Origin: Patescibacteria group bacterium
GTDB lineage: Bacteria; Patescibacteriota; Minisyncoccia; UBA6257; 2-01-FULL-56-20
Reading direction: 5' to 3'
NCBI GenBank assembly: GCA_024654525.1
Contig: JANLHI010000030.1
Coordinates: 80,437 to 144,436 of the forward strand
Length of the DNA stretch: 64,000 nucleotides
Shown: in pieces, positions 11,347 to 21,796 of the stretch
How positions within the stretch are numbered: the first letter of the stretch is position 1
Layout: the number at the start of each line of letters is the position of its first letter
Notes under the pieces: generated by a model
What the model was told of the DNA's origin: nothing
The model's input: the letters and a program-made list of their open reading frames with translations, nothing else
Database searches by the model: none
Position numbers and translations under genes: made by a program

Positions 11347-11431
11347 GTACACGGCTATGGAGTGTAGCTATGAAATAATATAAAAAGAGGCTGATTTTAC
11401 GATCGGCCTCTTTTGCATTTTACGTTTTATA

Positions 11432-12568
11432 TTGTATGCAGTAGTATATCCATACATGAACAAATCGGCGCTTCAAAAAATTTTATTTCAGCTTATTAAA
11501 TTCAAGTCCGAAACGAGAAATCAAGCGGAAGTGAAAAGAGCGGTTGATTATGTGGGGACGCTATTTCGCGGTACGCAGTACGGTGTAAAGAAATTCGCTC
11601 ATAAAGGTGTGCATTCGCTTATTATTTTTCCCACGCGAAGTGATTGGAGATATCCGAAAATATTACTCAACGGACACATTGATGTGGTTCCCGCACATGA
11701 TATGGCACAATTCAAGCCATATGAAAAGAATGGGAGAATATATGGACGAGGCGCAGTTGATATGAAGGGAGGGCTCACCGCGCTTATCGGAACACTTCTT
11801 GAGTTAGATGCTCAAAAAATTAAAAGTGATGTAGGGCTTATGATAACGGGAGATGAAGAGGTCGGCGGTGCGCACGGTGCGGGATTTTTGGTAGACGACA
11901 TGGGGTTGAGACCTCAATTTGCAATTGCGGGAGATGCACCTCGCCGAAGCGGTGTGGCGATTACCATCCATGGAAAAGGGGGTGTTTGGGTTGAGCTTAC
12001 TGCACGGGGAAAATCAGCACATGCGGCGCGACCATGGCTTGGGGAGAATGCGTTGGATAAATTGCATGACGCAATTGCAAAAATCAAACGTACTGTGGAA
12101 AAACGGGTTCCTTCTGATTCATGGGAAACCACCGTCACATTATCGGTTATTGAAACAGACAACCAAGCTCCGAATATAGTCCCGTCATATGCGAGGGGAG
12201 TGATTGATATTCGTTTTACGGAAACGTTTGCCGTGCACCCCGATGATGCGCATCGGAAATTAAAAGCGATGGTGCCGGAGGTTCAAGTAACGGCGCTTAC
12301 CAAAGTCATGCCTTTGATCAATGACTCAAAAAATAGTTTTATCAGAGATATTCAATCATCTTTTTCCCATACATTTGGAGAAAAAATTCCCTTGGTTCGC
12401 GAACATGGAGCAAGTGATGCACGTCATTTTATGACGTATAAAATTCCGAGTATCCTTGTGGGTACGATTGGGGATAATTGGCACACAAAAGACGAATGGG
12501 TGTCTATGGATAGCATTATGCTCCTTAAAGACGCACTTTTCGCATACCTTAAAAAACACGCAACATGA
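11432..12568 (+). CDS. M20 family metallopeptidase (ArgE/DapE/CPG2-like)
   Basis: 378 aa; LLNGHIDVVPA, GRGAVDMKGGLTA and GDEEVGG are the M20 metal-binding motifs; the start could instead be 11456. Confidence 0.8.
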   Translation: MYAVVYPYMNKSALQKILFQLIKFKSETRNQAEVKRAVDYVGTLFRGTQYGVKKFAHKGVHSLIIFPTRSDWRYPKILLNGHIDVVPAHDMAQFKPYEKNGRIYGRGAVDMKGGLTALIGTLLELDAQKIKSDVGLMITGDEEVGGAHGAGFLVDDMGLRPQFAIAGDAPRRSGVAITIHGKGGVWVELTARGKSAHAARPWLGENALDKLHDAIAKIKRTVEKRVPSDSWETTVTLSVIETDNQAPNIVPSYARGVIDIRFTETFAVHPDDAHRKLKAMVPEVQVTALTKVMPLINDSKNSFIRDIQSSFSHTFGEKIPLVREHGASDARHFMTYKIPSILVGTIGDNWHTKDEWVSMDSIMLLKDALFAYLKKHAT

Positions 12569-13560
12569 AACTTTCCATCGGCATAGTCGGTCTTCCGAAT
12601 GTGGGGAAATCCACGCTTTTTAGTCTGCTCACCAAGCAGAATATTTTGATTGCGAATTACCCCTTTGCGACGATTGATCCTAATGTAGGAGTGGTACCGG
12701 TCGTGGACGAACGATTAAAAGTACTTACGAAGATGAGTACTTCAAAGAAGACTATTCCTGCAGTGGTGGAGTTCTATGACATTGCGGGGTTGGTGAAGGG
12801 GGCAAATAAAGGAGAAGGGCTTGGAAATCAATTCCTTTCTCATATTCGTGAAACACAGGCAATTGTGGTGGTGCTGAGAGTATTTACCGATTCCACCGTG
12901 GTGCACGTGGAACAAAGTGTGGATCCTTTGCGGGATATGGAAATTATCAACACGGAGCTTGCGTTGAAGGATCTAGAAACTGTTGAAAAGCGATTTAAAA
13001 AGCTTGAAGGAGAAGCAAAGGCGGGTGATAAAGTTGCGGTTAAGAATTTCGAAGTATTAAAAGAAATAAAATCTGCGCTCGAATCGGGAGAATCGATTGT
13101 GCGTTTTTATGATGAGGAAATAGCAAAGGAACTTGCATTGTTGAGCTCAAAACGAAGATTCTATCTTTTAAACGGTGAACCGGAAGAAGTTCCGGAATCG
13201 CTTACGAAAAAAATACAAGAGAGAGGAGAGGATTATATAGTGGCAAATGTGGCGCTTGCAGATGAGTTTCTAGAGCTTACGCGAAAAGCGTATGAAGTTC
13301 TTGATCTTATCAGTTTCTTTACTACCGGGGAGGATGAGACGCGCGCGTGGACGATTGAGCGTGGTTCAAAAGTTCCGCAAGCGGCGGGAGTGATTCATAC
13401 CGACTTCGAGAAAAATTTTATTCGTGCGGAAGTGGTCGCGTATGATAAGCTTGTCGAGGCTCAAGGATGGAGCAAGGCGCGCGAGAAAGGATGCATGAGA
13501 CTTGAAGGTAAGGATTATGTTGTCCAAGATGGAGATGTGATGGTTATCAGACATGGGTGA
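12565..13560 (+). CDS. ychF: redox-regulated ribosome-binding ATPase YchF
   Basis: GIVGLPNVGKSTLF P-loop, ANYPFATIDPNVG and a C-terminal TGS-like domain (DGDVMVIRHG); ATGA overlap with the upstream gene. Confidence 0.9.
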   Translation: MKLSIGIVGLPNVGKSTLFSLLTKQNILIANYPFATIDPNVGVVPVVDERLKVLTKMSTSKKTIPAVVEFYDIAGLVKGANKGEGLGNQFLSHIRETQAIVVVLRVFTDSTVVHVEQSVDPLRDMEIINTELALKDLETVEKRFKKLEGEAKAGDKVAVKNFEVLKEIKSALESGESIVRFYDEEIAKELALLSSKRRFYLLNGEPEEVPESLTKKIQERGEDYIVANVALADEFLELTRKAYEVLDLISFFTTGEDETRAWTIERGSKVPQAAGVIHTDFEKNFIRAEVVAYDKLVEAQGWSKAREKGCMRLEGKDYVVQDGDVMVIRHG

Positions 13561-13656
13561 AATTGCGAATAACAAAATCCAAATTTCAAAAAATCAAAGT
13601 ATTTGAATTTTGATTATTTTTTTAGTATTTGAATTTTTGAATTCAGGATTTTCTTT

Positions 13657-14391
13657 ATGAAGAAATCAATTATTAAAGTTAATAACCTTGTAAAGCGTTT
13701 TGGGAATGTTACTGCGGTGGACGGTATTTCTTTTGATATGCATGAGGGGGATATTACTGGGCTTTTGGGTCCGAATGGTGCGGGGAAGACGACTACTATT
13801 CAGATGATTTTAGATGTTATCACTCCTACGTCCGGTGAAATTCGGATTTTTGATCTTGACATGAAGCACCACCGCGAGGAGATTCTCTCGAAGACAAATT
13901 TTTCATCACCCTATGTAACGCTCCCAAATAGTTTGAAGGTATGGGAGAACCTTAATGTGTTTGCGGGTCTTTATGGTGTGAGAAACTCCGGTGCAAAGAT
14001 AAAGGAATTAGTGGAACAATTCGACCTTGTCGATTCATTGTCGAAGCTTACTTCAAAACTTTCCACCGGTCAGCTTACGCGGTTAAACCTTGTAAAGGCC
14101 CTTTTAAACGATCCAAGGCTTTTACTTCTTGATGAGCCGACCGCCTCGCTCGATCCGGATATTGCCGATCGTGTGCAACACATGCTCCTTAAAATTCGCA
14201 AAGAGAAGGGGATTACGATATTGTACACTTCCCACAATATGAAGGAGGTTGAAGCGCTTTGCGACCGTGTGATATTCATTAATCATGGAAAAATAGTCGA
14301 TGATGGTACCCCTGCGGATTTAGTGAAGAAGTATGGGCATGAAGATTTAAATGACGTGTTTTTGCACATCGCGAGAAGCGATTCTAAATAA
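13657..14391 (+). CDS. ABC transporter ATP-binding protein
   Basis: Walker A GPNGAGKTTT, LSTGQ signature and LLLLDEP Walker B. Confidence 0.85.
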   Translation: MKKSIIKVNNLVKRFGNVTAVDGISFDMHEGDITGLLGPNGAGKTTTIQMILDVITPTSGEIRIFDLDMKHHREEILSKTNFSSPYVTLPNSLKVWENLNVFAGLYGVRNSGAKIKELVEQFDLVDSLSKLTSKLSTGQLTRLNLVKALLNDPRLLLLDEPTASLDPDIADRVQHMLLKIRKEKGITILYTSHNMKEVEALCDRVIFINHGKIVDDGTPADLVKKYGHEDLNDVFLHIARSDSK

Positions 14392-14484
14392 AAATGTAAA
14401 TGTCACAATGGAAAATGACAATGTAAAATATTCAATCCACTGTTCATTTCGGACTTTAAATTGTCATTTTAAATTTTTAATTTT

Positions 14485-15273
14485 ATGAAATTCTATCGCG
14501 TCAAAGCGCTTCTCATGAGAAACTTATATCTTTATAAGCGGAGTTTACCGCGCATCATGGATATTCTTTACTGGCCGGTGATGGAACTCCTTATCTGGGG
14601 ATTCTTGAGTGTATATCTCGAAAAGCTCAATTTTGGCGGAGTAAGCGTGGTAACGGTGCTTCTTGGAGGGATACTCTTTTGGGAGCTTTTGAGTCGTGCG
14701 CAGGGAGCGGTTTCCGTCGCATTTCTCGAGGATGTATGGGAAAGGAATTTTTTAAATATTTTTGTAACACCGCTCAAGACTATCGAGTTGCTTGCGGCAT
14801 GGTTTTTAATTGGCCTTGTCCGCATCGTGCTTGTGGGGATTGTTGCGGGTGGATTGGCATTTCTTTTCTATAAATTCAATATTTTCACTTTTGGTATTTA
14901 TCTTATTCCGTTTGTTCTGAACCTCCTCCTTTTTGGATGGATTGCAGGACTTTTTGCAATCGGAATCATTCTTCGCTACGGATCATCCGCTCAGATCATT
15001 GCATGGGGAATTCTCTTTCTTATTCAACCCTTCGTTGCGGTGTTTTACCCTGTTTCCGCTTTACCCCAATCAATCCAGTGGATTTGTTGGATTTTACCTC
15101 CTACCTATGTTTTTGAAGGCATGCGTACGGTGCTTGCAACGGGAGTTCTTCCTTTTCGGGATTTTTTACTGGCGGCGGGAACAAACGCAATATATCTCGT
15201 ACTGGTAGTTTGGTTTTTCTTCCGAATGTTTGCACGCGTAAAAGAGAAGGGGCTATTACTAAAACTTGATTAA
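14485..15273 (+). CDS. ABC-2 type transporter permease
   Basis: 262 aa, six predicted TM helices, immediately downstream of the ABC ATPase. Confidence 0.7.
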   Translation: MKFYRVKALLMRNLYLYKRSLPRIMDILYWPVMELLIWGFLSVYLEKLNFGGVSVVTVLLGGILFWELLSRAQGAVSVAFLEDVWERNFLNIFVTPLKTIELLAAWFLIGLVRIVLVGIVAGGLAFLFYKFNIFTFGIYLIPFVLNLLLFGWIAGLFAIGIILRYGSSAQIIAWGILFLIQPFVAVFYPVSALPQSIQWICWILPPTYVFEGMRTVLATGVLPFRDFLLAAGTNAIYLVLVVWFFFRMFARVKEKGLLLKLD

Positions 15274-15283
15274 GTAACTTTTT

Positions 15284-15317
15284 CCTGCATATACCCGCCA
15301 TGGCGGGTATATGCAGG
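15284..15317. repeat. 34-bp perfect palindrome cctGCATATACccGCCATGGCggGTATATGCagg (copy A), 25 bp upstream of the PaaX-like gene
   Basis: Perfect inverted repeat centred on CCATGG; second copy at 15912..15941 with symmetric compensatory changes. Confidence 0.8.
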
Positions 15318-15324
15318 AAAAAAA

Positions 15325-15333
15325 TGATATGAT
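15325..15333 (+). promoter_or_regulatory. candidate extended -10 element (TGaTATGAT) for the PaaX-like gene; implies a (near-)leaderless transcript
   Basis: TGnTATGAT-type match 8 nt before the ATG at 15342, directly downstream of palindrome A; no Shine-Dalgarno sequence before the ATG. Confidence 0.3.
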
Positions 15334-15341
15334 GAAAACAC

Positions 15342-15890
15342 ATGTCACGAGGACCTGGGAAAATTCAGAAGAGAGTATTATTACTACTTCAAGCAGGAAT
15401 AGCGCTTTCACTTTCGATATCTCCGCAACGGCAGTTAAGGGTTTTAAAAGGGATGCATAAGGAATGGAAAAAGATTGATAGTGAGGTACTATCTCGTTCT
15501 ATTCAAGCGCTCTACCAGAGTAAGCTGGTGAGTTTCCATGAACGAGGAGAGAAAGTTGATATGGTGCTTTCAAAAGAAGGGGAGAAGAAAGTTCTTACGT
15601 ATGCTATTGATAATATTTCGGTGAAGAAGCCCGTGCGTTGGGATGGGAAATGGAGGATTGTACTGTTTGATATACCGAAAGATGAAAAAAAAGCCAGAGA
15701 AGCGTTTCGTTCTCATTTATATCGTTTTGGATTTCGTATGTTGCAAAAAAGTGTATTTGTATTTCCTTATCCCTGCGATGACGAGATTGATTTTCTTGTT
15801 GAATGCTACGAATTACAACGATATGTAAGAAGGATTGTTGCAGATGATATAGATAACGGGTTACACCTCAAGAAAATATTTAATGTATAA
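15342..15890 (+). CDS. PaaX-family transcriptional regulator, short form (winged HTH plus a PaaX-like central domain)
   Basis: 182 aa; the N-terminal wHTH (ALYQSKLVSFHERGEKVDMVLSKEG) and WDGKWRIVLFDIPKDEKKAREAFRSHLYRFGFRMLQKSVFVFP match the PaaX W.G.W..V.F..P...R..R..LR..L...GF..L...VW..P block. Confidence 0.5.
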   Translation: MSRGPGKIQKRVLLLLQAGIALSLSISPQRQLRVLKGMHKEWKKIDSEVLSRSIQALYQSKLVSFHERGEKVDMVLSKEGEKKVLTYAIDNISVKKPVRWDGKWRIVLFDIPKDEKKAREAFRSHLYRFGFRMLQKSVFVFPYPCDDEIDFLVECYELQRYVRRIVADDIDNGLHLKKIFNV

Positions 15891-15911
15891 GTAGTTGTCA
15901 TGGATTGCGGT

Positions 15912-15941
15912 CGCATATACTTGCCATGGCAAGTATATGCG
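15912..15941. repeat. 30-bp perfect palindrome cGCATATACttGCCATGGCaaGTATATGCg (copy B)
   Basis: Same core as copy A (GCATATAC NN GCCATGGC NN GTATATGC) with cc/gg replaced by tt/aa, so palindromic symmetry is preserved. Confidence 0.8.
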
Positions 15942-15976
15942 GAAAAAAGAAGTGAGATAAAGAGAATTAAATACGG

Positions 15977-16639
15977 TTAAGATCGGCGTTCCAGCGCACT
16001 TCCAAGCGTTTCGTCGTCTGCAAATTCAATCTCACCGCCTGTAGGGAGTCCTCTCCCCAGATAACTTATTTTTTTTGTGAATGGTTTGAGTTCCCTGGCG
16101 ATAAGAGATGCGCTGAAATCGCCGACAGATGTAGGGTTGAATCCAAGTATGATTTCTTCTGTGTGCCCTGAGCCCGCCGAAGGAATGAGTTCTTTTTGTA
16201 TAAGCGATTTTAAGTGTGCGAGACGTAGGTTTTGCCACTCTTCAAGGATTCCTGTCTTTGGAATTTCTCCGATAATAAAATAATGACCATTGAATTTTCC
16301 GCTTTTTTCCAGGGATATAAGATCTGTTTCTTTTTCAACCACCATAATAATAGTTGGCGTACGGCGAGGGTCTTTGCAAATATGGCACCGTAATTTTTGA
16401 TTTTGATCTTTGTTGTCGGCATGTGGTGAGAGTTCTGATTTTGGAGCTTGTGTGGGGAAGAAACAGTGAGTGCAGGGTTGAATGGTACGCATGTCATGTA
16501 TCGCATCACCCAATTCTTTCATGCTGATATTGCCCATGCGAAGAAGGTGAAATGCAAGGCGTGTAGCTTGCCGAGGTCCGAGCGACGGAAGCTCGGAGAG
16601 TTTTGCGATAAACTGCTCAATAGGAGAGGGGAGACGCAT
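15977..16639 (-). CDS. recR: recombination protein RecR
   Basis: MRLPSPIEQFIAKLSELPSLGPRQATRLAFHLL (HhH), a C4 zinc finger (CTHC...CHIC) and a Toprim domain; the ORF track extends to 16795 but the start was moved to the internal Met just after the dnaB stop. Confidence 0.85.
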   Translation of the reverse strand: MRLPSPIEQFIAKLSELPSLGPRQATRLAFHLLRMGNISMKELGDAIHDMRTIQPCTHCFFPTQAPKSELSPHADNKDQNQKLRCHICKDPRRTPTIIMVVEKETDLISLEKSGKFNGHYFIIGEIPKTGILEEWQNLRLAHLKSLIQKELIPSAGSGHTEEIILGFNPTSVGDFSASLIARELKPFTKKISYLGRGLPTGGEIEFADDETLGSALERRS

Positions 16640-16643
16640 TTCT

Positions 16644-18014
16644 TTAAAACTCTGTATTTTCTCCCATTCGAGTTTCAATCGTACGGAATGAAGTGTGCTC
16701 CGCATCGAAATAAAGATCGACGGAACCAAGAGGACCATTTCGGTGTTTTGCAATCGAGATTTGTGCGATGTTTTGTTCTTCGGGAAGGACATCAAGTTTA
16801 TCGCGGTCTTTGCGATAGATGAACATCACAACATCTGCATCTTGTTCAATTGCTCCCGATTCGCGAAGGTCTGAAAGGCGCGGCATTTTATGGTCGCGCT
16901 GATCGACCGCGCGATTTAGCTGGGAAAGAGTGAGAACGGGGACTTTAAGTTCTCGCGCAAGAGCTTTGAGTCCACGGGAAATTTCTGTGACCTGCTGTAC
17001 TACGTTGTCGCTTTTTGTACGTGGGGTGAGGAGTTGGAGATAATCAACGGTGAGGAGTCCAAGTCCATGCTCTACTTGAAGACGGCGCGCCATAGAGCGC
17101 ATTTGTATGATATTTAATGATGGAGTGTCGTCGATGAATATATTTGCCTGTGACAGTCGGTCAAGTGCCTGTTGAATCATTTGAAATTCGGTGTCGTTAC
17201 TTATTTTTCCGGTAAGGATTTTCCAAAGCGATACCTGAGATTCTGCGGAAACCAAACGATCAATAACTTGTTCGCGTGACATTTCAAGCGAGAATATGCC
17301 TACGGGAATACCTTCCTTGGTTGCGGCATGTCGCGCAATATCAAGCATAAGCGATGTTTTTCCAAGTGATGGACGTGCGCCAAGCACGACAAGGTCGGAT
17401 TTTTGCAGTCCGGAAAGTATGTTATCGAGACCATCAAAGCCGGTAGGTACGCCACGATGACGTCCTTTTCCTTGATGGAGTTGTTCAATGCGTTCGTATG
17501 CCGCTTTCAGTTCGTCTTTGAGCGGAACGAAGTTTTTTGGCATAGATTTCTGCGATATCGCAAGAATTTTTTGTTCGATATCATCCATCATTTCTTCGAT
17601 GTCGCGCGATGCATCAAAGGCATCCTCGGTAATTTCACCGGATGCTTTAATCAGGTCTCGTAAAACCTTTTTTTCCTTTACCAGTTGCGCGTAGTGAGTG
17701 ATGTGCGATGCGGTCGCGATTTGATTGGTAAGTTCGGCAAGATAACTTGAACCGCCGATGTCTTTCAACGAGCCTTTCTCTTTAAGAAGGTTTCCAACGC
17801 TTATCACATCAATTGGCTGATGTTTTTGATATAAATCAAGGATTGCATCATAAATTCTTTCGTGTCCTGGGGAATAAAAATCTTGTGAGGAAAGTATATC
17901 TGCGACTTTAAAAATGGCATTCTTGTCGATGAGAATGCCGCCAAGGACTGCTTGTTCCGCCTCCATATTTTGAGGAGGAACCTTCAATTTGTTTTGTGGG
18001 GGATTAGGCGACAT
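16644..18014 (-). CDS. dnaB: replicative DNA helicase DnaB
   Basis: 456 aa; N-terminal DnaB domain (NMEAEQAVLGGILID), Walker A GARPSLGKTS and the RecA-like C-terminal domain. Confidence 0.9.
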   Translation of the reverse strand: MSPNPPQNKLKVPPQNMEAEQAVLGGILIDKNAIFKVADILSSQDFYSPGHERIYDAILDLYQKHQPIDVISVGNLLKEKGSLKDIGGSSYLAELTNQIATASHITHYAQLVKEKKVLRDLIKASGEITEDAFDASRDIEEMMDDIEQKILAISQKSMPKNFVPLKDELKAAYERIEQLHQGKGRHRGVPTGFDGLDNILSGLQKSDLVVLGARPSLGKTSLMLDIARHAATKEGIPVGIFSLEMSREQVIDRLVSAESQVSLWKILTGKISNDTEFQMIQQALDRLSQANIFIDDTPSLNIIQMRSMARRLQVEHGLGLLTVDYLQLLTPRTKSDNVVQQVTEISRGLKALARELKVPVLTLSQLNRAVDQRDHKMPRLSDLRESGAIEQDADVVMFIYRKDRDKLDVLPEEQNIAQISIAKHRNGPLGSVDLYFDAEHTSFRTIETRMGENTEF

Positions 18015-18085
18015 AAAGTAAACTTCTCATTTACAAACCCAATATCCAACTTCTCAAGCTTGGCTATCGTAGCGCTTAAACCTTA

Positions 18086-19522
18086 TTATTTTTGCTTTAT
18101 AGGCCAGAGAAATGGCCCGTATGGTGTATCTTCTACCCCGTATCCTAGCGCGTTCAGACGCTTGCGCAAGGTATCGGACTGGACAAACTGTTGATTACGG
18201 CGGAATGCGTGGTAATGCTTCTTTGCAACACTTATATGAAAGGGGATACGCATTCTTTTCCTGGCTGTTTCGATGAGGGAGAGCTGTAACACCTTATCGA
18301 ATTTTTTTGCGGTATCAAGGCGTTGTACAGGCGAGAGCTTGTCATCATAGAGGAGTGCATGGAGCGAGGCGAGAGCTTGTGGCGTATTAAGGTCGTCGCT
18401 TAGCGCAGTGAGAAATTTCTTTTCATAGTCATGACGTAGTATTTTCATTTTGCTTTGTCGTGCGTCGAATATGAGTCGCCCCACTTGTTTATAAAGATTT
18501 TGAAGTGATTGATTCGAAGACTCAAGGGCTTCCCAATGAAAGTTTAATTGAGAACGATAATGTGCACCGAGTATAAAATAGCGATATGCAAGTGGAGGCA
18601 ATGAGCGATCTTCTATTTTTCTAAGTGTTAAAAAATTTCCCAGGGATTTTCCCATTCTTTCGTTGTTGATTACGAGAAACTCTCCGTGAAGCCAGAAGTG
18701 AGCAAGTTCTTTGTTATATGCGCCTTCGGATTGCGCCATCTCGTTTGTGTGATGCACTGCAATATGATCAATACCTCCCGTGTGGATATCAAACGGTTGT
18801 TTTAAAAAATATTCCGATATGGCGGAGCATTCTATATGCCATCCGGGAAATCCTTTTTCCCATGGAGAATCCCATTGGAGGACGTGATTCTTGAATTTTC
18901 CGGTTATTTTGAACCACAGCGCAAAATCAGAAGGGTGTTTTTTTTCCGGATCTTTTACTACTTTTGCACGCACCGCAATTCGTTTTTCTTCAATTGGCTG
19001 GCGTGAGAGGCGGAGATATTTTTTTAAACCGTATCGTGTCACATCAAAATATACGGCATTTTTTGTTTCATACGCGAGTCCTTTTTCAAAAAGTTTCTGT
19101 ATGAGTTTTTGCTGTTCCGGAATAAATTTTGTCGCAGGAGCAATTATTTTCGGGATTTTAATATTGAGTTTTTTGATGTCGTTCAAGAATGCTTCCGTGT
19201 AGATGTGCGCCACTTCAAGTACGTCTTTCTTTTCTTTGTGTGCTTCCTGCTCCATTTTGTCTTCTCCCTCATCCGAGTCATTGGTCAGGTGTCCGACATC
19301 GGTGATATTCATCACTCTCTTTACGTTGAAACCCAAAAAAAGGAGAGTTCTCTCCAGGATATCTTCAAAAATATAAGTGCGGAGATTTCCAATATGGGCA
19401 AAGTTATATACCGTCGGGCCGCAAGTATAAAGACTAACCTTCGATTTATTGAGTGGCCGAAAATTCTCTTTCTGTCTTGAGAGAGTATTGTAGAGCTTGA
19501 GCTTCGTGGAAGGGGATCGCAT
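18086..19522 (-). CDS. cysS: cysteine--tRNA ligase
   Basis: 478 aa; class I HIGH-type motif (CGPTVYNFAHIGNLRTY) and KMGKSLGNF (KMSKS); DALR-like C-terminal region. Confidence 0.9.
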   Translation of the reverse strand: MRSPSTKLKLYNTLSRQKENFRPLNKSKVSLYTCGPTVYNFAHIGNLRTYIFEDILERTLLFLGFNVKRVMNITDVGHLTNDSDEGEDKMEQEAHKEKKDVLEVAHIYTEAFLNDIKKLNIKIPKIIAPATKFIPEQQKLIQKLFEKGLAYETKNAVYFDVTRYGLKKYLRLSRQPIEEKRIAVRAKVVKDPEKKHPSDFALWFKITGKFKNHVLQWDSPWEKGFPGWHIECSAISEYFLKQPFDIHTGGIDHIAVHHTNEMAQSEGAYNKELAHFWLHGEFLVINNERMGKSLGNFLTLRKIEDRSLPPLAYRYFILGAHYRSQLNFHWEALESSNQSLQNLYKQVGRLIFDARQSKMKILRHDYEKKFLTALSDDLNTPQALASLHALLYDDKLSPVQRLDTAKKFDKVLQLSLIETARKRMRIPFHISVAKKHYHAFRRNQQFVQSDTLRKRLNALGYGVEDTPYGPFLWPIKQK

Positions 19523-19540
19523 TTTTGTCGTGGAGACTCG

Positions 19541-20413
19541 TTAGAACCACTCTTTTCTTTTGAAGAAAAGCGCCAAAGAAACCATACCGATTGCAATAAG
19601 AGTTACGATAATCCAAAAGGATCCCGGGGTATTTATTATGGGAGTTCCGCGTGCGGGGATAGTGAGAAGCGCCGCAATCAGCATAAATGGGAATGTGAGA
19701 AATGAAAGAATGGTGAATGTCTTCATAACATTATTCACTTTTAAACCCATGAGTTGCGTGTTGGTGTCTTCAAAATCGTTTGTTGCTTCTCGGTAATTTT
19801 CCACTTGATTCACGATGCGTAGATGATCGCCGATCAGATCGTTTAAATATATCTCCGCGTCCTTATTCCAAAATTTAAGACCTCGAGAGAGAAGGGATTG
19901 TATTGTCGATTGTTGGAGGCGAACGATTATTCGGTATTCGGATACGTCTCGTTTAAGGTAGGAAATTTTTTCCAGAACTTCCTTCTCTTTATTTTTAAAA
20001 AGTTCTTTCCCAAGACTCTCTACTTTTTCGCGCACATGATGTAATTGTCGTTCCTGAAATTCGATGAGTGCCTGAAGTACGGTATATAATAATTTTAAAG
20101 AACTCTCTGCGGTATTCTCGGTTAATGAGTCGAGTGCATCTATCTTTTCCGAGTGAACCGCAATTACTGTGTCGCGTGTAATAATAAAATCTATTTCCGT
20201 TCGCGTGGTAGTGGCGCTTTTCGTATCATAAAGCGGAAAATAATATACAAGATACAGATAAGACTCATAATATTCCACACGCGCTCTTACGGTTGTGGTT
20301 TTGAGCTCCTGAAGTATCAAAGGATGAATTTGAAATTTTGCTTTCAAAAATTCAATATCTCGGTCTGTTGGGCGAAATATGCGAAGAAGTGATGCGGATT
20401 TTGTTTTTGCCAT
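19541..20413 (-). CDS. corA: magnesium/cobalt transporter CorA family protein
   Basis: 290 aa; the C-terminal NNVMKTFTILSFLTFPFMLIAAL plus two TM helices resemble the CorA pore region (GMN variant). Confidence 0.65.
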   Translation of the reverse strand: MAKTKSASLLRIFRPTDRDIEFLKAKFQIHPLILQELKTTTVRARVEYYESYLYLVYYFPLYDTKSATTTRTEIDFIITRDTVIAVHSEKIDALDSLTENTAESSLKLLYTVLQALIEFQERQLHHVREKVESLGKELFKNKEKEVLEKISYLKRDVSEYRIIVRLQQSTIQSLLSRGLKFWNKDAEIYLNDLIGDHLRIVNQVENYREATNDFEDTNTQLMGLKVNNVMKTFTILSFLTFPFMLIAALLTIPARGTPIINTPGSFWIIVTLIAIGMVSLALFFKRKEWF

Positions 20414-20491
20414 ATCTTAATAGTATAGACAAATACTTCTATAAATCCAAAGTATAGGATGTTTATCCTCTGGTGTTCGGTTCTGGCAATC

Positions 20492-20519
20492 TTGACACTA
20501 GACTGCTAAATGATATACT
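20492..20519 (+). promoter_or_regulatory. sigma-70-type promoter for the hrcA-grpE-dnaK-dnaJ cluster
   Basis: TTGACA (20492..20497), 16-nt spacer, TGaTATACT extended -10 (20511..20519); no CIRCE inverted repeat detected. Confidence 0.5.
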
Positions 20520-20551
20520 TTTTATATTACGTAATTGGTAATTTCAATTTT

Positions 20552-21232
20552 ATGACGCTTTCCGAGCGTGAAGCAAAAATATTGAGTGCTACGGTTGAAG
20601 CTTTTATAGAAAGCGGTGAGCCTGTAAGTTCTCAACAGTTATATGACCGTTATCGGTTTGGTATTAAGCCGGCAATGATTCGCCATGAACTTGAGGCGCT
20701 TGCCGAAGAGGGATATCTTGAGCAACCTTATCATTCCGCGGGGCGTGTTCCCTCGGATAAGGGATTTGATTTCTTTGCACGATGTGCACTCGTAGATTCA
20801 TGTTCCGAGACTCAACGCGCGCATGCGGATTTCAAGCGCCTTTTCGCAGAACGTGCATGGAACGAGTTTCTTTCCGAATTAACGGAAGATTTCGGGGTGA
20901 TGGGTGTGGTGGGAGATACGCGCGGAGAAGTGGTGAAAGAGGGACTTGATTATCTTGTCGATCATCTTGCATGGGAAACGCCCCAAGAGATTCGTCGCGT
21001 CATCCGAGATTTTTTTGAGGTGGACGAACGTCTTTTTTCCGCAATTGAGTCATGGAAAGGGGAACCGTTGCAGATATTTATAGGTCGCAAGAGTCCCGTT
21101 ACTAGAAGCGAAGGGCTTTCGGTGATAATGGGGCGTTATCAGTTATCGGATAATAATGTCACCTTGTGCGCCATAGGTCCCAAAAGGATGAACTACCGTC
21201 GAGTCATCCATGTGATGCGTAGCGTGGTATAA
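20552..21232 (+). CDS. hrcA: heat-inducible transcriptional repressor HrcA (short form)
   Basis: N-terminal wHTH (LSEREAKILSATVEAFIESGEPVSSQQL); the start was moved to 20552 because the ORF-track start at 20510 overlaps the -10 element. Confidence 0.75.
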   Translation: MTLSEREAKILSATVEAFIESGEPVSSQQLYDRYRFGIKPAMIRHELEALAEEGYLEQPYHSAGRVPSDKGFDFFARCALVDSCSETQRAHADFKRLFAERAWNEFLSELTEDFGVMGVVGDTRGEVVKEGLDYLVDHLAWETPQEIRRVIRDFFEVDERLFSAIESWKGEPLQIFIGRKSPVTRSEGLSVIMGRYQLSDNNVTLCAIGPKRMNYRRVIHVMRSVV

Positions 21233-21253
21233 ATAAATAACCATATTGCAATC

Positions 21254-21796
21254 ATGTCTGACGATATACAAAAAAACGAATCCGAAGAAGTCGGTGATGC
21301 GCCGAAAAATAATGAAAGTGCAACCACTGAAGGCGAAGAGAATGATCTTCAAAAATGCGAGCGCGAGCGTGATGAATATCTTTCGGGGTGGCAACGTGCA
21401 AAGGCGGATTTTATCAATTATAAAAAAGACGAGATGAGAAGATTCGAAGAAATCGCAAAATATGCGAATACTGCGTTGCTTATGGATCTTATTCCCGTTC
21501 TCGACAGTTTTGACCTCGGAATCCGCGCACTTGAGAAGGCGGGGCAAGTAGAAAAGGGAGTATATATGATTAAAGCGAGTTTAGAAGATACATTGCGAAG
21601 AAGGGGGTTAGAGAGAGTGGTGAGTGTGAAGAGGTCGCTGTTTGATCCCGGAAGCGCAGAAGTAGTTAGCGAGGTAGAATCTGAAGAACCACCAGGAACA
21701 ATTATTGAGGAAATCGAGCCCGCATATCGTTTGCATGATAAAATTATCCGACCGGCGCGAGTAAAAGTGAGTAAGGGGAAGGAAGGGAGTCAGTAA
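21254..21796 (+). CDS. grpE: nucleotide exchange factor GrpE
   Basis: 180 aa; the GrpE core (RAKADFINYKKD..., LLMDLIPVLDSFDLG) plus synteny with dnaK. Confidence 0.85.
   Translation: MSDDIQKNESEEVGDAPKNNESATTEGEENDLQKCERERDEYLSGWQRAKADFINYKKDEMRRFEEIAKYANTALLMDLIPVLDSFDLGIRALEKAGQVEKGVYMIKASLEDTLRRRGLERVVSVKRSLFDPGSAEVVSEVESEEPPGTIIEEIEPAYRLHDKIIRPARVKVSKGKEGSQ

Follow-up and report, generated by a model that had tools for sequence, protein, structure and literature searches.

What does a long perfect palindrome do when it is written twice, once before and once after the same small regulator-like gene? The question is raised by a stretch of 64,000 nucleotides from a Patescibacteria group bacterium, an uncultured and ultra-small organism (GenBank assembly GCA_024654525.1, contig JANLHI010000030.1, positions 80,437 to 144,436), which was analysed over its whole length and is hereafter called the window. 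Within it, a gene for a 182-aa protein, designated here mini-PaaX, is enclosed by an upstream palindrome (U) and a downstream palindrome (D) (Table 1). A preliminary description, made from the letters alone, had taken the pair for operator sites of the dimeric regulator encoded between them, possibly joined by looping, and had named a genome-wide palindromic repeat family as the alternative. In the present analysis, the anatomy of the locus was revised, and the palindromes were found to be conserved around homologous genes of the candidate phyla radiation (CPR), to be specific to these genes, to co-vary with the domains of the encoded protein, and to belong to a unit that is cleanly present or absent between collinear genomes. 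We estimate at roughly 55% the probability that U and D are the cognate operator sites of an autoregulated, self-insulated and portable regulator cassette.

The palindrome pair and the enclosed gene

Both copies are perfect palindromes, and their letters at 15284-15317 (copy A of the preliminary description) and 15912-15941 (copy B) read exactly as quoted there. The extent of copy A, however, had been set too short, its 34 bp being only the core of U, which T5/A5 extensions lengthen to a perfect dyad of 44 bp. U and D have GCATATAC-NN-GCCATGGC-NN-GTATATGC in common and are the longest two perfect palindromes in the window. A search with the pattern GCATATACNNGCCATGGCNNGTATATGC, allowing up to three mismatches, matched only 15287-15314 and 15913-15940 in the window and nothing in 100 dinucleotide-preserving shuffles of it, and degenerate relatives of the palindromes were also absent from the window. 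The two copies lie 626 bp apart with the mini-PaaX gene enclosed: copy A is separated from the ATG by 24 nt, and D begins 21 nt after the stop codon, between the mini-PaaX gene and the convergent recR.

The stems of U and D differ at three pairs, and all three differences are compensated on the opposite arm (cc/gg versus tt/aa, plus T-A versus C-G in pair 14, counted from the centre). The hairpin potential proposed earlier was recovered, since both copies would fold very stably if transcribed, with predicted energies of -33.4 kcal/mol for U (z = -9.6) and -20.6 kcal/mol for D (z = -5.7). The sequence also agrees with the earlier statement that a U-tract is lacking: no T-run follows U or D on either strand, and neither palindrome was among the matches of an intrinsic-terminator consensus scan. 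No match at gathering score was obtained for the palindromes in Rfam 15, the sub-threshold ones being generic miRNA-precursor hairpins that reached 24-27 bits against gathering scores of 51-140. Ordinary terminators of the window have stems of 9-11 bp, often with T-rich tails, while stems of the U/D type measure 13-20 bp. One of them, AAAAGAGGCTGATTTTACGATCGGCCTCTTTT at 11383-11414, displays the classical bidirectional shape (A-run, stem, T-run), so that this genome does employ canonical intrinsic terminators, unlike U and D. An identity of U and D as canonical intrinsic terminators was rejected because of the missing U-tracts and of these differences.

The open reading frame (ORF) of the mini-PaaX gene, its 182 codons and its ATG start had been correctly delimited in the preliminary description, and the candidate extended -10 element announced just after copy A was found as TGATATGAT. 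This element ends 8 nt 5′ of the ATG, with no Shine-Dalgarno sequence in between, and a leaderless or nearly leaderless mRNA is therefore predicted, the mini-PaaX gene probably being transcribed in this form. As judged from this arrangement, U is proposed as a candidate operator spanning the -35/spacer region of the mini-PaaX promoter, and D as a candidate second cognate site that would also mark the 3′ boundary of the cassette.

The encoded protein is composed of an N-terminal helical, winged-helix-like region (approximately residues 1-90) and a Cas2-like PaaX_M domain (approximately residues 99-169). The label of PaaX family given to it earlier holds for the central domain, which matched Pfam PaaX_M (PF20803) with E = 5.7e-22 and 78.1 bits (cut-off 24), but not for the protein as a whole: the C-terminal domain of PaaX (PaaX_C) had no match in the 182-aa protein, and the NCBIfam equivalog model for PaaX, TIGR02277, gave 34.6 bits against a cut-off of 264.55, aligning over profile positions 34-147 of 279 only. 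The Cas2 models of Pfam (28.0 bits, cut-off 23.8) and NCBIfam (TIGR01573, 32.7 bits, cut-off 24.5) aligned with residues 104-141 only, which correspond to β1-α1. An AlphaFold2 (AF2) model was obtained with a predicted local distance difference test score (pLDDT) of 86; its closest structural neighbour was E. coli PaaX (8a39), followed by Cas2 and VapD, and its C-terminal domain superposes on Cas2 structures. The Cas2-type β1 aspartate (D110) and several charged residues are invariant. The family comprises 519 clusters at 50% identity reaching E<=1e-30. The window protein is thus a truncated, Cas2-like mini-PaaX, neither a canonical PaaX ortholog nor a CRISPR Cas2.

Conservation and protein-DNA co-variation across the family

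The recurrence of this bracket was assessed in 80 homologous loci chosen by protein alone (these and the other loci compared are cited by L numbers where they must be told apart), of which 73 had both flanks and 57 gave aligned palindrome pairs for the study of symmetry and position; these are mostly metagenomic fragments, whose start codons, -10 boxes and gene calls are heuristic. The best common 30-mer was sought between 150 nt upstream and 150 nt downstream of each gene. One with at least 22/30 identity was common to both flanks in 70 of the 73 loci (~95%), and controls pairing flanks of different loci never rose above 21/30. Palindromes with at least 12 of 14 pairs were found in 43% of upstream and 40% of downstream flanks versus 1.7% of background windows. 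Each of the three closest homologue loci (55-67% identity) carries a palindrome before and after the gene, with a GCCATGG(C) centre in all of them and with arms that differ between genomes and match within a genome. The earlier claim that the palindromes are tied to the gene between them is upheld by this recurrence, by the lineage-specific arms and by the co-variation with the protein described below.

The family element can be described as a dyad of ~34 bp, consisting of an R-C-N4-G-Y centre, an inner spacer of ~4 bp that is less constrained than centre and arms, and lineage-specific arms of ~7 bp. The centre varies by lineage (GCCATGGC, ACGATCGT, GCGATAGC, GCGACCGC, GCTGGAGC and others). 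Within a locus, U and D are identical at 93-100% in the centre (d0-3, counted in positions from the dyad), at 67-81% in the inner spacer and at 81-93% in the arms (d8-13), so that there are two maxima of identity, one in the centre and one at a distance of ~9-13 bp from it, or about one helical turn. In some loci the 4-nt centre is not palindromic (GATA, TGGA) and is flipped between the two copies. L174 harbours two divergent paralogous cassettes, each with its own different palindrome.

The position of the two copies relative to the gene is also regular. The upstream dyad is most often centred 46-50 nt ahead of the ATG. In 46 of the 57 loci, the stretch from the palindrome centre to the ATG includes a -10-like box, which comes after the right arm or overlaps with it. 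In 19 of those 46, including the window, the box ends 5-10 nt before the ATG (L128-L207), a proximity that suggests leaderless mRNAs in the mini-PaaX family of CPR bacteria. The downstream copy is found 18-93 nt past the stop whatever the orientation of the neighbour, the next gene being co-directional in 27 loci and convergent in 26. This indicates that the downstream copy belongs to the 3′ end of its own gene, and its identification as an operator of the next gene was discarded on the same counts. U-tracts are not enriched after either copy in the aligned pairs: the 3′ flanks contain 33-35% T, the same as A, and TTTT occurs near the downstream copy in only 16 of 57 loci.

Short paralogues of 125-130 aa, made up of a basic N-terminus and the Cas2-like PaaX_M domain only, were found in L094 (2572-2949, minus strand) and in L103 (4211-4603, minus strand, between rpsG and fusA). 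They too are bracketed by GCCATGGC-centred palindromes and possess a -10 box and a near-leaderless start.

Mantel tests on 56 loci were used to compare parts of the palindrome with domains of the protein. Loci with similar arms also tend to be similar in both protein domains (rho = 0.29 each, p<0.0004). Similarity of the centre tracks the Cas2-like domain (rho = 0.26, p<0.0004) and not the N-terminal one (rho = 0.03, p = 0.30), and the contrast between the domains is significant. Shared phylogeny adds to these correlations, but phylogeny alone would not yield a domain-specific contrast. The co-variation of the centre with the Cas2-like domain fits the bracketed paralogues that have the Cas2-like domain alone. 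Taken domain by domain, the co-variation is the best available computational evidence for what may be a direct and modular recognition of the palindromes by the protein.

The symmetric compensation pointed out for the window is real, as shown by its three differences, and it is significant family-wide; its weight in the family is nevertheless smaller than the window suggests. Over the 57 aligned pairs, complementarity amounts to 88-98% at d2-3, 54-75% at the inner d4-7 and 79-91% at d8-14. Differences between U and D of the same locus are mostly one-sided (163); in 24 cases both partners have changed with Watson-Crick pairing preserved in U and in D, whereas 5,000 permutations gave 5.6 such cases on average and never more than 15. 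These compensated changes cluster in some of the loci, the window among them. The compensatory signature is therefore significant across the family, yet it is not the dominant mode, and it implies either selection for self-pairing, as hairpin or cruciform, or a mutational process that symmetrises palindromes, such as template switching. Among the mismatches of downstream copies, read on the sense strand, G.T exceeds A.C by 56 to 29, and in upstream copies the two are found 29 and 27 times. This bias weakly suggests a role of the downstream copy at the RNA level.

Presence, relocation and copy number of the unit

The closest relatives of the recR gene of the window (70-74% identity) were found on contigs collinear with positions 12562-21658, that is, over ~9 kb, in which ychF, an ABC ATPase and an ABC-2 permease gene are followed by the convergent recR, dnaB, cysS, corA, hrcA and grpE, with protein identities of 68-90%. 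The only part of this block without a counterpart in the two collinear loci, L208 and L209, is 15274-15976, which comprises U, the promoter, the gene, D and short spacers. At these empty sites, 80-117 bp separate the convergent ABC-2 permease and recR genes, and each gap holds one palindrome that is unrelated in sequence to those of the window (A6CGATCGT6 in L208 and a perfect one of 28 bp in L209). In a Liptonbacteria metagenome-assembled genome (MAG) whose RecR is 70% identical, a cassette with 67% identity is located at a different site, between ileS and tsaD. The cassette of L004 occupies the same ileS-tsaD site, which has been kept in L001 and L004 at 55-67% identity; the ileS-tsaD region is not within the 64-kb window.

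Other members of the family have changed their surroundings. The cassettes of L170, L187 and L207 are 81-83% identical and have similar palindromes, with nothing else in common within ±10 kb, and the unit of L179 is inverted relative to a flank that it has in common with L206. Among the inferred insertion sites, convergent gaps outnumber divergent ones by 12 to 3. Two near-identical cassettes were seen in no genome or locus examined, the paralogues being divergent. The palindrome-gene-palindrome unit is thus a discrete cassette that, from its distribution, appears to have been moved as a block. The retention of similar palindromes in different contexts indicates that they travel with the gene, which largely excludes their origin by duplication of a target site, and the similar divergence of the mini-PaaX protein (67% identity) and of RecR (70%) points to mainly vertical descent with intragenomic relocation.

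Further copies of a locus's own repeat are rare: three were counted in 602 kb (57 loci), two of them directly beside the downstream copy. Third copies were located in L133 (2216, 2365), L041:6000 and L179:5007, and in L133 the additional copy lies 149 nt beyond the downstream one and does not differ from it. These counts cover the 64-kb window and 602 kb of related loci, with which a low-copy dispersal elsewhere is compatible.

Species-representative genomes were scanned with TATA-N3-GCCATGGC-N3-TATA, which matched at least 118 loci. Among the matches listed, most non-CPR ones are due to chance and several CPR ones are coding sequence; for example, the TATATACGCCATGGCTGATATA matches of L015, L018, L023 and L032 were set aside as the coding N-terminus M-A-Y-I of an unrelated protein. 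The same motif gave only five single matches in IMG/VR, which is the chance level. In some CPR genomes, again among the matches listed, orphan long perfect palindromes with this core were found, mostly between convergent genes (Table 1). The L033 orphan comes from the same MAG as L001, but its arms resemble those of the window, and the L068 and L124 orphans come from the same MAG as L049 and have arms like those of the gene-flanking copy of L049.

Long hairpins without U-tracts seem to be common at gene 3′ ends in these genomes (L208, L209, L210). In L210:5625-5780, from the Liptonbacteria MAG mentioned above, three different perfect or near-perfect palindromes of 35-40 bp stand in tandem after recR. 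Two other repeats were encountered. At least ten identical copies of ctaagagttgTATAAGAGCCATGGCAATTATAtatcaatctg, in both orientations and on several contigs, were found in Gallionellaceae MAG.26 (JAULAW01; L021, L028, L030, L051, L052, L069, L080, L082, L117); this is an unrelated repeat, possibly the end of an insertion sequence (IS) or of a miniature inverted-repeat transposable element (MITE). The same perfect palindrome of ~38 bp, TTTTAAGATATAGGGGCCATGGCCCCTATATCTTAAAA, was found near contig starts in a Planctomycetota MAG (L067:1-50) and a Pirellula MAG (L093:150-200).

Table 1. Coordinates of the mini-PaaX cassette and its parts in the window, and of orphan palindromes in other loci
Feature	Position	Strand	Description
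Whole cassette (U, promoter, gene, D, short spacers)	15274..15976	none	absent from collinear L208/L209
Upstream palindrome U (copy A = core 15284-15317)	15279..15322	none	44-bp perfect dyad TTTTTCCTGCATATACCCGCCATGGCGGGTATATGCAGGAAAAA, centre between 15300/15301
Predicted extended -10 element	15325..15333	+	TGATATGAT, read from sequence
Gene for the 182-aa mini-PaaX	15342..15890	+	ATG start; ORF and profile matches
Downstream palindrome D (copy B)	15912..15941	none	30-bp perfect dyad CGCATATACTTGCCATGGCAAGTATATGCG
Orphan palindrome	L033:4385-4430		no family gene within 8-kb block
Orphan palindrome	L068:6540-6573		no family gene within 8-kb block
Orphan palindrome	L124:6725-6758		no family gene within 8-kb block
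Orphan palindrome	L014:4726-4759		no family gene within 8-kb block
Orphan palindrome	L072:4857-4890		no family gene within 8-kb block

The surroundings of the gene bear on its annotation. No CRISPR-like array is present in the 64-kb window, no cas1 or other cas gene was found near the window gene, and none was called in loci L001-L004. Genes of paa catabolism are also missing nearby, the neighbours in the window being an ABC transporter, ychF, recR, dnaB and cysS, and those of the homologues in relatives ileS, tsaD and the atp operon. The window protein had no match to HUH/Y1 transposases, to TnpA or TnpB or to a known transposase or recombinase fold, nor, in a check for phage origin, to PHROGs. 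The name given to the family by NCBI/PGAP (P0001, P0002, P0010, P0032, P0092) is "CRISPR-associated endonuclease Cas2", which is probably a systematic mis-annotation in Patescibacteria MAGs, because only β1-α1 fits the Cas2 models and neither a CRISPR array nor cas genes are found nearby. As for recR, the mechanical call (15977-16795, minus strand) gives an ORF of 272 aa from a TTG, although homologues have only 200-233 aa; the true start is probably the ATG at 16639, nearly touching the end of dnaB at 16644.

A proposed portable autoregulated cassette and its rivals

From these results we infer binding of the palindromes by the protein, repression, a roadblock with insulation, and leaderless transcription, in the following way. 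U and D would be bound by a dimer of the protein encoded between them. At U, over the -35/spacer region and before the extended -10, the bound dimer would occlude its own promoter, as E. coli PaaX does at Px. D, at 20-60 nt past the stop, would act as a second cognate site that closes the 3′ edge of the unit. Protein bound there would be a roadblock of equal effect in both directions, and the RNA copy of D would fold into a stable 3′ hairpin, so that read-through from neither neighbour could overrule the autoregulation. With a site at each end and its own promoter, the gene would form a self-contained, context-independent cassette, which would explain how it survives relocation and all kinds of neighbours. 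The dyad pattern would be fitted by a single dimer that touches B-DNA from one side at three places, the conserved R-C-N4-G-Y centre tracking the Cas2-like domain and the arms, ~11 bp to either side, tracking the whole protein. It was demonstrated for E. coli PaaX that widely spaced inverted half-sites, TGATTC-N27-GAATCA, are bound and that its own promoter is thereby occluded (PMC9493321). Since this autorepressor is also the best structural match of mini-PaaX, the match was counted in favour of the operator reading.

Several observations weigh against this interpretation. First, the clean presence or absence in collinear genomes and the unrelated contexts would also be expected of a mobile element. 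Second, a plain double-stranded DNA operator predicts no compensation between opposite arms, yet such compensation is strongly enriched. Third, the orphans between convergent genes have no promoter there to regulate, and the paralogues that lack the winged-helix-like region are equally bracketed, from which it follows that the N-terminal domain is not the whole story. Fourth, no helical phasing of the U-D spacing was detected (Rayleigh tests, periods of 9-12 bp, all p>0.18), so the looping between the two sites that had been considered earlier gains no support from phasing, an unphased loop still being compatible with it. Finally, we know of no precedent for a second, 3′ operator of a regulator gene that is conserved across hundreds of lineages.

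The rival that survives best, and which we hold to be rather unlikely, regards the palindromes as the ends of an element that is or formerly was mobile, recognised and possibly processed by the Cas2-like protein. The ends would fold into hairpins or cruciforms and be recognised by their sequence, and the unit would move or be copied as a block, much as with the subterminal hairpins of IS200/IS605 or in a REP-RAYT system (REPtron), but with a non-HUH protein of Cas2 fold; autoregulation could coexist with this activity. The clean indel at 15274-15976 within ~9 kb of collinearity with L208 and L209, the relocation of the L170, L187 and L207 cassettes together with their palindromes, the inversion between L179 and L206 and the 12:3 bias for convergent gaps are in line with this explanation, although the relocation might be due instead to rearrangements that break preferentially at palindromes. 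The enriched arm compensation is as expected of a hairpin, the flipped non-palindromic 4-nt centres behave like loops, and the conservation of D110 and of several charged residues also counts for it, but no transposase or recombinase fold was found, the best structural match is a repressor, and both the conservation at one helical turn and the overlap with the promoter are features of operators. Orphan copies exist elsewhere in some genomes, and the transposases associated with repetitive extragenic palindromes (REPs), or RAYTs, also exist in single copy between their cognate palindromes (PMC3337134); however, two near-identical cassettes coexist in no genome or locus, and three extra palindromes in 602 kb are unlike the situation of REPs and REPINs. 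Moreover, the divergence similar to that of RecR and the shared site in L001 and L004 argue for a long vertical residence.

Carried further, the same evidence may be taken to indicate a Patescibacteria-wide new type of element, whose ends form hairpins and are recognised, and perhaps also nicked or processed in another way, by the Cas2-fold protein encoded between them, along REPtron or IS200-like lines but with a non-HUH protein; we consider this unlikely. The Cas2-like dimer would read the dyad centre and the N-terminal domain the arms, with mostly vertical inheritance and relocation as a block. If true, it would provide a free-standing Cas2-family protein with a sequence-specific tie to palindromic repeats outside CRISPR, which would bear on the origin of the association between Cas2 and CRISPR repeats.

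It is quite improbable that the palindromes function as RNA hairpins only, with no recognition by a protein, U ending or stabilising the upstream transcript and D the gene's own mRNA, and with the similarity of the copies resulting from duplication or gene conversion. Both copies would fold very stably, long palindromes without U-tracts seem to be common at gene 3′ ends, compensation is enriched, and the 56:29 excess of G.T over A.C in downstream copies is of the kind that such a role would leave. However, a lineage-specific sequence is common to both copies in ~95% of the loci and is not found in the other terminators of the genome, and the co-variation with the protein, domain by domain, would be left unexplained. 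Pairing in the inner stem reaches only 54-75%, whereas the conserved blocks are spaced by one helical turn; U-tracts are not enriched, and ordinary terminators have 9-11-bp stems with T-rich tails. In addition, the predicted -10 box lies downstream of U, which would place U outside the gene's own mRNA.

The genome-wide REP-like family that had been offered as the alternative, with the gene flanked by two of its members by chance, is very improbable. A few orphan GCCATGGC-centred palindromes are known from some CPR genomes (L033, L068, L124), but only two copies and no degenerate ones are present in the 64 kb of the window, only three extra ones in 602 kb of related loci, and ~95% of the family genes carry the pair; it was discarded on this copy number. 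Least probable of all is a long target-site duplication, by which a resident terminator palindrome would have been doubled when the gene integrated, in the manner of CRISPR spacers or casposons, Cas1-Cas2 integration yielding a direct duplication of the repeat around the insert: the empty sites of L208 and L209 do each hold one palindrome between the same convergent genes, but these are unrelated in sequence to those of the window, the palindromes travel with the gene (L170, L187, L207) and co-vary with the protein, and no cas1 gene or CRISPR array is nearby.

The cassette was compared with several known systems. Like E. coli PaaX, mini-PaaX has a long dyad over its own promoter, an anatomy consistent with the autorepression predicted here. 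E. coli PaaX, however, has ~305 aa and a C-terminal phenylacetyl-CoA-binding domain, which the 182-aa mini-PaaX lacks; mini-PaaX has no paa genes nearby, scores far below the equivalog cut-off and retains the Cas2-type β1 aspartate. Its gene is followed by a putative second cognate site, its dyad has a conserved centre, and its cassette appears to relocate. With the Cas2 proteins, mini-PaaX appears to share the ferredoxin-like fold; it has a β1 motif "h-h-h-D-I-P" and scores just over the Pfam and NCBIfam cut-offs, but it fits β1-α1 only, carries an N-terminal region predicted to bind DNA, and has no cas1 or array nearby; unlike in CRISPR, the gene itself lies between the two "repeats", at a spacing of 626 bp.

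The REP-RAYT systems are similar in having a single-copy, largely vertically inherited gene flanked by its own cognate palindromes, a specific pairing and co-evolution of protein and palindrome (PMC3337134), and occasional copies of the palindrome elsewhere, at gene 3′ ends. They differ in that RAYTs are homologues of HUH/Y1 transposases, while mini-PaaX has a Cas2/PaaX fold, in that REPs and REPINs number tens to hundreds per genome, while extra copies are rare here, and in that the upstream copy of the cassette overlaps a promoter. The resemblance to intrinsic terminators consists of stable, G+C-containing stem-loops after gene 3′ ends; the differences are the missing U-tract, stems of 13-20 bp versus 9-11 bp, and a gene-specific sequence present in both copies. 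Elements of the IS200/IS605 group are organised as hairpin, gene and hairpin, with two similar imperfect palindromes at their ends and no obvious target duplication. The cassette has the same layout, and its arm compensation is consistent with folded ends, but the unit lacks TnpA and TnpB, does not occur as a multi-copy element and has in some lineages resided at one site for a long time.

Autoregulated dimeric repressors with palindromic operators are in themselves ordinary. Four features appear to be new: the CPR-wide occurrence of a family of Cas2-like mini-PaaX proteins, a second and presumably cognate site that follows the gene almost invariably, a co-variation between the middle of the dyad and the Cas2-like domain, and the apparent ability of the whole unit to move as a cassette. 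In the literature on PaaX and Cas2, on PaaX in CPR bacteria and on Cas2-like helix-turn-helix proteins and palindromes, of which the coverage was incomplete, no description of this arrangement was found.

A large part of bacterial diversity belongs to the Patescibacteria/CPR, whose gene regulation is almost unstudied. In this family, a probable binding site is written twice beside its gene in hundreds of natural variants, which would amount to a specificity code, already at hand, for a DNA-binding protein of the CPR, and the recognition of the family as mini-PaaX corrects the systematic annotation of its members as CRISPR-associated endonuclease Cas2. No textbook operator arrangement fits the combination of a conserved 3′ site, arm compensation and cassette-like relocation. 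The cassette would represent either a self-insulating, portable regulator module, which could be a useful part for synthetic biology, or a new kind of element composed of a Cas2-fold protein and its hairpins.

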